Of a DNA stretch of 64,000 bases, positions 8,244-8,605 are shown one piece after another; the stretch's first letter is position 1, and every line of letters starts with the position of its first letter. Source of the stretch: Escherichia coli (GTDB taxonomy: Bacteria; Pseudomonadota; Gammaproteobacteria; Enterobacterales; Enterobacteriaceae); NCBI RefSeq assembly GCF_003018115.1, contig NZ_CP027457.1; one strand, given 5' to 3'. A program made the translations under genes and the position numbers. The notes under the pieces were generated by a model. That model was not told where the DNA came from. It did no database searches and saw nothing but the letters and a program-made list of their open reading frames with translations.

Positions 8244-8507
8244 ATGATCGATCTGGAAAACCAGGAGCGGGAGATTATCAATTTAATGTTAAGCCAGCGT
8301 ATTTCCTGGCTAGCTGCCGTGCGTATCAGGCATAAATTATCGCTTGCTGAAGTAAGTAAAATGTTAGGTATCTCGATTAATTCTCTAAAATAGATCGAAA
8401 AGACGGAACGGTTTAGCTCAAACATCAAAAGCAAAATGGCAGAAATTTATGGTTGTCCACCAGAGTTGCTGATATGCCCTTCCTGGATGACGGCTGAACA
8501 TAAATGA
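8244..8507 (+). pseudogene. XRE-family helix-turn-helix ORF (87 codons) interrupted by an in-frame TAG at 8391-8393
   Basis: strong SD AAGGAAGG before ATG 8244; frame reads MIDLENQ...LSLAEVSKMLGISINSLK-TAG-IEKTERFSSNIKSKMAEIYGCPPELLICPSWMTAEHK-TGA; GIS-x4-LK-(amber)-IEKTE resembles the XRE recognition helix (ISQIERGE type). Confidence 0.45.
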
Positions 8508-8605
8508 ATAGATTCGTGAATAGATACTTGAATAGATTTTATTTTCTATCCATATGAAAAATAATAGTAAATCTATAAATCAGTTGCTATTGATGAATAG
8601 ATACT
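8505..8605. repeat. direct repeats of TGAATAGAT: three tandem 12-bp units (8505-8540) plus a fourth copy at 8594-8605
   Basis: GAATAGAT at 8506, 8518, 8530 (exact 12-bp register) and 8595; TGAATAGATACT occurs identically at 8517-8528 and 8594-8605. Confidence 0.6.

Follow-up and report, generated by a model that had tools for sequence, protein, structure and literature searches.

In E. coli K-12, the hipBA operators comprise four TATCC-N8-GGATA palindromes that are bound by HipB dimers, and the locus, which encodes the HipA-kinase toxin, thereby regulates itself (scheme in PMC8262856). The locus described here resembles hipBA in belonging to a HipA-family toxin, in having several sites distributed across the promoter and in encoding a helix-turn-helix (HTH) protein that is the presumed autorepressor. 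It differs in that the sites are 12-bp direct repeats and not palindromes, and in that DNA binding would fall to a winged helix joined to the kinase itself instead of to a separate XRE-type HipB. Likewise unlike hipBA, the hipH locus has no antitoxin gene, and the DNA analysed here has no toxin gene.

Winged-helix response regulators bind head to tail on PhoB/OmpR-type boxes, which are tandem direct repeats of ~11 bp. The array described below shares with these boxes a (predicted) winged helix acting on tandem direct repeats at a promoter; however, its period is 12 bp rather than 10-11 bp, the protein family is unrelated, with an N-terminal HipH fold nearest to ArsR/SmtB, and the expected outcome is repression rather than activation. 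We do not claim membership in the PhoB/OmpR class. Rep-bound plasmid iterons are also direct repeats that are recognized by a winged-helix protein autoregulating its own gene, a property that we infer in the present case, but their units are 17-22 bp long as opposed to 12 bp, and the repeats considered here occupy a chromosomal promoter and leader with no replicon.

HipH (YjjJ) is a HipA-family Ser/Thr kinase toxin with its own N-terminal winged helix. The HTH at its N-terminus has been noted before, with the remark that it 'may bind DNA' (PMC8262856), and again in PMC11452175. Here we describe four repeats from an E. coli strain that has lost hipH, and we consider it likely that they are the multi-site operator-promoter region of this gene, serving HipH's own winged helix and orphaned in the strain at hand.

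The DNA analysed (hereafter, the window) is a 64-kb stretch in which the open reading frames give the order serB, ytjB, lplA, a small HTH ORF, and then deoD, deoB and deoA on the minus strand. Between the HTH ORF and deoD, reading of the sequence located TGAATAGAT in a 12-bp start-to-start register, with copies beginning at 8505, 8517 and 8529, and a repeat search recovered the same family; the 12-mer TGAATAGATACT at 8594-8605 is an exact copy of 8517-8528 (Table 1). These positions bear out the initial annotation of this DNA, which had reported a triple in 12-bp register together with a recurring 12-mer, the first copy overlapping the stop codon of the HTH ORF and the fourth lying beside the deoD terminator hairpin. 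On the plus strand the first three bases of proximal repeat 3 are indeed the TGA stop (8505-8507) of that ORF, and the distal copy is separated from the hairpin by 3 nt. The same annotation had called the repeats helical-phase, a wording that does not hold: the 12-bp period differs from the ~10.5-bp helical repeat, so neighbouring sites are offset by ~50 degrees.

All four matches to GAATAGAT in the window, with both strands searched, fall within the array region. The expected number is 1.19 per window, and 5 of 100 shuffled sequences also reached four matches, without clustering. When up to one mismatch was allowed in the 9-mer, just six further copies were found in the window, each single and scattered. 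Read on the minus strand, each unit is ATCTATTCA followed by three variable bases, which is more informative than the plus-strand reading. A sigma-70 consensus scan of the minus-strand spacer (8538-8593) and of the K-12 spacer gave no promoter match; the consensus scans for sigma-70 promoters and terminators proved uninformative, and even the deoD terminator was missed, because of its loop size. The Rfam search of 8150-8720 for RNA families returned a sub-threshold match to a eukaryotic snoRNA alone, which we take as chance.

Table 1. Positions of the repeats and neighbouring features in the 64-kb window.
Feature	Position in window	Strand	Remarks
Distal repeat	8594..8605, with ATCTATTCA at 8602..8594	minus	follows the deoD terminator directly and precedes proximal repeat 1 by 65 bp
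Proximal repeat 1 (promoter-nearest)	8529..8537	minus	abuts or overlaps the -10 element in orthologues
Proximal repeat 2	8517..8525	minus	nine of nine columns invariant in the 17-genus alignment; within the Reg-Seq repressor site
Proximal repeat 3 (nearest the hipH start)	8505..8513	minus	partly in the Reg-Seq site, truncated by the end of the mutagenised region
Spacer with remains of the hipH core promoter	8538..8593 (56 bp)	minus	same length as in K-12, largely different sequence
deoD intrinsic terminator hairpin	8609..8636 (arms 8609-8617/8628-8636)	minus	9-bp perfect arms, then a T-run
hipH start-codon relic	8499..8501 (CAT on plus)	minus	homology to the hipH allele ends here; K-12 alignment agrees
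Allele-specific cassette replacing the 1332-bp hipH coding sequence	8213..8498 (286 bp, 41% G+C)		limits fall at the stop and start codons of hipH
Small XRE-type HTH ORF, 87 codons	8244..8507	plus	amber codon at 8391-8393; occupies the place of the hipH coding sequence

A search with the intergenic stretch found matches in 5421 of 5426 complete E. coli genomes, and these matches are of two kinds. Approximately 4057 genomes match the whole query and are annotated there with a 'helix-turn-helix domain-containing protein', and approximately 1300 match window positions 8499-8667 alone, at 82-84% identity, and have yjjJ annotated. In K-12-type genomes hipH (yjjJ) lies between lplA and deoD, on the deoD (minus) strand, and in hipH-carrying genomes the match begins at query position 287, or window 8499, which is exactly the hipH ATG (4621769 in MG1655). 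Thus, the repeats belong to the deoD-hipH spacer, with ATCTATTCA as their minus-strand reading. K-12 and the window agree exactly in the sequence of each of the four repeats and in the 65-bp distance from the distal to the proximal copies. On the lplA side the alleles diverge from the lplA stop codon onward; with divergence at the lplA and hipH stops and rejoining at the hipH ATG, the variable cassette is exactly the hipH coding sequence. The initial annotation had found no feature to explain the repeats and had suggested a comparison with strains that carry yjjJ. That comparison supplied the explanation: the repeats form the regulatory region 5' of hipH/yjjJ, and this gene is missing in the strain.

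Several further observations concern the two alleles. The swap is confined to coding sequence (window 8211-8501 against 1171-2503 of locus L002), and the 56-bp spacer, although equal in length between alleles, is ~40% identical and nearly unalignable (window 8538-8593 against L002 2540-2595). The locus has two alternative alleles, hipH and the small HTH ORF, found in ~25% and ~71% of complete E. coli genomes, respectively. E. albertii carries hipH, and HTH-type proteins exist in E. marmotae. Three of the matches to this chromosomal intergenic region sit on plasmid records. We also considered the cassette as an inversion or deletion remnant of hipH and rejected this, as the 286-bp segment has no homology to the gene; a tblastn search of HipH against the window gave no match.

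The small HTH protein was found in Escherichia and Shigella alone. RefSeq lists its gene as a pseudogene with an internal stop in strain F9792, which is 100% identical, and the many truncated versions of the protein suggest that the gene is decaying repeatedly. The amber codon at 8391-8393 corresponds to CAG in intact alleles; in strain S1-CHI-01-A the ORF is frameshifted (L005 832-1094). The initial annotation had put this adjacent XRE-HTH protein forward as the possible binder, with the array as its multi-site operator. The ORF does end inside the first repeat, and a domain search of it returned weak matches to HTH_3 and Sigma70_r4; however, the protein is absent from repeats in other genera, having been found in none of the best 80 hipH loci carrying them, and strains with hipH in its place have the very same repeats, which predate the XRE-HTH gene at the locus and lie 3' of the ORF instead of at its promoter. 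We therefore regard an operator for the XRE-HTH protein as very improbable. Because the deoD-hipH order is widespread in other genera and the HTH ORF is limited to Escherichia/Shigella, hipH is the older state and the array in the window is orphaned.

An alignment of 15 YjjJ homologues was used to fetch hipH loci from contigs of one genome per species, and the best 80 of at least 578 loci, drawn from Gamma- and Betaproteobacteria, served as the orthologue set. When periods of 8-16 nt were tested upstream of the gene, 12 nt was the best in 67 of these 80 loci, as against 10% of shuffles. Chains of TTCA at exact 12-nt steps contained at least two members in 62 of the 80 best loci and at least three in 43; among 8000 shuffles, 0.6% reached two and none reached three, and in the rest of these loci two or more were reached by 31 of 7048 windows of sequence. 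Apart from two chance cases within coding sequences (deoD in L012 and hipH in L036), every chain of three or more ends just before the hipH start.

In some 25 genera of Enterobacterales, hipH is preceded within 170 nt by two to four ATCTATTCA units in 12-nt register, the last of them 0-4 nt from the ATG (the window has three plus one), and most of these genera also have a distal (GT)ATCTATTCA right behind the terminator of the upstream gene. This layout holds even where the gene upstream of hipH differs from deoD, the array having accompanied hipH into other genomic neighbourhoods. In Salmonella enterica it stands behind TTGACA-17-TTAAAT, and it recurs in Betaproteobacteria and further Gammaproteobacteria, among them Nitrosomonas, Gallionella, Variovorax, Azoarcus, Polaromonas and Methylobacter, where it is often directly preceded by TATAAT. 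At the position of the spacer, the orthologues carry TTTACC-17-TATAAA, TTGACA-17-TTAAAT or TATAAT, with a -10-like hexamer abutting repeat 1. The invariant columns of the 17-genus alignment comprise the distal repeat, repeat 2, most of repeat 3 and a CTTTAC block; the distal repeat is invariant across 17 Enterobacterales upstream regions, with its 65-bp distance kept. The consensus of 167 units is (T/A)ATCTATTCA(T/C)N, and an A precedes TTCA in 167 of 167, though the search did not require it. The array is almost certainly a regulatory element of hipH.

These data support the view that the repeats are genuine and under selection and that they form a multi-site element of the operator type, to which a protein binds. 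The initial annotation had offered iterons or multi-site operators as the likely nature of the repeats; the operator half of that reading stands, and the iteron half fails on the non-replicon context and on the constant placement of the array at the hipH promoter and leader. The units are direct repeats, as iterons of a replicon or mobile element would be, and one strain shows a slippage-type loss of a 12-bp unit, as functionless slippage repeats might. The surroundings, however, are a chromosomal, syntenic intergenic region with lplA and deoD as neighbours in thousands of genomes and with no rep-like ORFs or origin features, and neutral slippage is excluded by conservation over two proteobacterial classes in which the cores stay invariant while the 3-nt linkers vary. 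We give iterons and slippage repeats next to no credence.

The K-12 counterpart of this DNA has been dissected by Reg-Seq, in which the yjjJ promoter was classed (0,2), having a site for MarA at -24..+18 and, at +30..+45, one for a repressor that was left unnamed (PMC7567609, supplementary files 5 and 13). The transcription start at 4621716 used in that study is a computed one (PMC7567609). From this start and the hipH ATG at 4621769, the repressor site maps to TCTATTCACGAATCTA, which is repeat 2 plus the part of repeat 3 inside the mutagenised region. The Reg-Seq architecture therefore describes the same DNA, with its repressor site on repeats 2-3, but the account left out the repeat structure, the distal copy, the conservation and a candidate binder, and its mutagenised region ends inside repeat 3. 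K-12, the strain used, carries yjjJ, whereas the strain of the window does not. Genomic SELEX showed that RpoD holoenzyme binds the spacer in vitro, and the -10 element proposed there falls inside repeat 1; an H-NS flag was also reported (PMC3946193).

An alternative is that the proximal repeats act in RNA, where a leader that is folded or bound by protein would govern how well the hipH mRNA is translated or how stable it is. hipH orthologues almost never have a Shine-Dalgarno sequence, and in most of them the ATG lies 0-6 nt after the last ATTCA unit (L012-L091 and L093; in K-12, L092 200-212). With no Shine-Dalgarno sequence and the ATG right after the last unit, translation must start weakly or in an unusual way. 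Little of the leader lies outside the three proximal units, and the Reg-Seq site lies within transcribed sequence; since its transcription start is computed, the 'repressor' signal could reflect mRNA effects. A leader element does not account for the distal copy, which sits upstream of the -35 element, behind the neighbour's terminator, and would be outside the mRNA, nor for the arrays of Rheinheimera and Alishewanella, which lie 60-100 nt upstream of the start. There were zero matches to Rfam families, and the co-variation with a DNA-binding helix described below would be unexpected for an RNA element. Thus, an RNA element in place of an operator seems improbable to us. Because hipH lacks a Shine-Dalgarno sequence, an RNA-level role is plausible as an added layer, one that could coexist with the operator role.

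We return to the operator reading and to the protein that would occupy it. A Pfam search did not detect the N-terminal HTH of HipH, and a sequence search for a solved HipH structure found none. Residues 1-105 of HipH were modelled with AlphaFold2 from 34 sequences (mean pLDDT 92.8). The model shows a winged-helix fold, in which residues 3-8, 15-22 and 26-35 (helix 3) are helical and residues 39-53 form a hairpin. The nearest solved folds found by Foldseek are the ArsR/SmtB-type repressors HlyU, SqrR and BigR, with rmsd values of 1.6-1.7 Å over ~54 residues; because the Foldseek E-values are weak (0.2 or above), the winged-helix call rests on the topology of the model and these superpositions.

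The start of helix 3 varies together with the core of the repeats. Among the best 80 loci, all those with ATCTATTCA units have S-Q-[A/P]-T-x-S-R at this position. The Comamonas group has S-R-A-T-L-[G/A]-R and ATCGTTTCA, and Rheinheimera and Alishewanella have D-R-S-T-V-T-R and ATTGATGCA, both with the 12-nt triple array kept; these two non-canonical specificity classes comprise only three and two related genomes, respectively. HipH is the only known factor that accompanies the sites everywhere and changes with them, from which we infer that the units are HipH's own operator. Judged by this co-occurrence and helix co-variation, HipH is probably the protein that binds the repeats.

Another host repressor could instead bind the repeats and control hipH in trans. 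The Reg-Seq factor is unnamed, the AT-rich repeat region is flagged as H-NS-bound, and the repeats persist in strains with no hipH. In addition, ChIP-exo of myc-tagged YjjJ in MG1655 gave zero binding sites (PMC8464067), a negative to be read with the caveat that HipH is toxic and poorly expressed. Such a repressor would nevertheless have to follow an array that has stayed with hipH throughout Gamma- and Betaproteobacteria, even where the neighbouring genes differ, and, as the core changes exactly where the recognition helix of HipH changes, it would have to co-vary in the same lineages. We therefore judge a trans-acting repressor unlikely, and HipH itself remains the favoured occupant of the sites.

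HipH also has reported properties that an autorepressor released by c-di-GMP would unite: its toxicity requires the HTH and it localises to the nucleoid, it binds c-di-GMP with a KD of 7.6 μM, and c-di-GMP raises hipH transcription via the native promoter, 'at the promoter region' (PMC11452175). The proposed arrangement, followed along the minus strand, runs from the deoD terminator through the distal ATCTATTCA, a core promoter of ~56 bp and three ATCTATTCA units to the hipH ATG, such that the three 12-bp-spaced units would cover the edge of the -10 element, the transcription start and the entire short leader. HipH would bind head to tail via its winged helix, with one molecule per 12-bp unit, and might bridge the proximal units and the distal site. 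Binding would turn off hipH transcription, amounting to autorepression, and the gene would be induced once HipH left the DNA. A candidate trigger for such release is c-di-GMP, given that it is a ligand of HipH and increases transcription of hipH. In the window, the hipH coding sequence has been swapped for an unrelated HTH pseudogene on the opposite strand, leaving an orphan array in a cell without the cognate protein. Taken as a whole, the following composite is tentative and rather less likely than not: HipH as an autorepressor released by c-di-GMP that binds head to tail on 12-bp repeats, three of them plus one 65 bp upstream, with a recognition code that can be reprogrammed via residues 25, 26 and 30 and is conserved from Enterobacterales to Nitrosomonas, and with its operator orphaned in ~70% of E. 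coli after a clean swap of the toxin gene.

Of 5426 complete E. coli genomes, 1348 carry the hipH coding sequence, in every case once and on the chromosome; the window lacks it, as do ~75% of E. coli genomes. Population counts of the repeats were made with exact 61-mers (E <= 1e-15). Among genomes with the hipH-type region, 1352 of 1366 (941 + 411; 99%) had exact 61-mers with all three proximal repeats intact. For the HTH allele (~3858 genomes), 1713 were intact like the window and at least 1709 had a mutated unit. Repeat 1 is the one most often mutated in hipH-less E. coli, to TGAATGGAT in 1479 genomes and to TGAATGTAT in 230, and sampled strains also show CGAATGGAT and a distal TGAATAAAT. 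In hipH-less strains, repeats 2 and 3 and, mostly, the distal copy stay perfect, which may reflect either a short time since the loss or a residual function. These sequence counts are suggestive of relaxed constraint on the array in HTH-allele genomes; they reflect few mutational events on a clonal tree, in which genomes are not independent, so the decay is not conclusive.

Individual strains show other changes at the locus. Exactly one 12-bp unit has been lost in E. coli S1-CHI-01-A (L005 ~1090-1130), as slippage between tandem units predicts. In E. coli TB354 (L004 2186-3062), IS200C lies exactly between the deoD terminator and the distal repeat, with the hipH promoter otherwise intact. E. 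coli SaT040 combines a frameshifted hipH with the mutated distal repeat TGAATAAAT (L006 673-2003, ~2096), which may represent a second route to loss of the system.

Literature searches on HipH structure and operator found no paper describing the repeats, and searches with the motif sequences returned unrelated primers and shRNAs only. As a class, the array is probably autoregulatory and would be a variant of toxin-locus autoregulation, with 12-bp direct repeats and a winged helix on the toxin itself, that is absent from the literature searched. As an unrelated cassette now stands in place of the hipH coding sequence, the element in the window is a relic and not a working member of the hipH regulatory regions, and it should be annotated as a remnant of the hipH promoter and operator, not as a site of the neighbouring pseudogene. 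For the restraint of HipH in a locus with no antitoxin gene, and for the DNA target of its HTH, the repeats supply an explicit, testable target, and the three natural specificity variants lend themselves to swap experiments. Release by c-di-GMP, if true, would explain both the c-di-GMP induction of hipH and the neutralisation of HipH.
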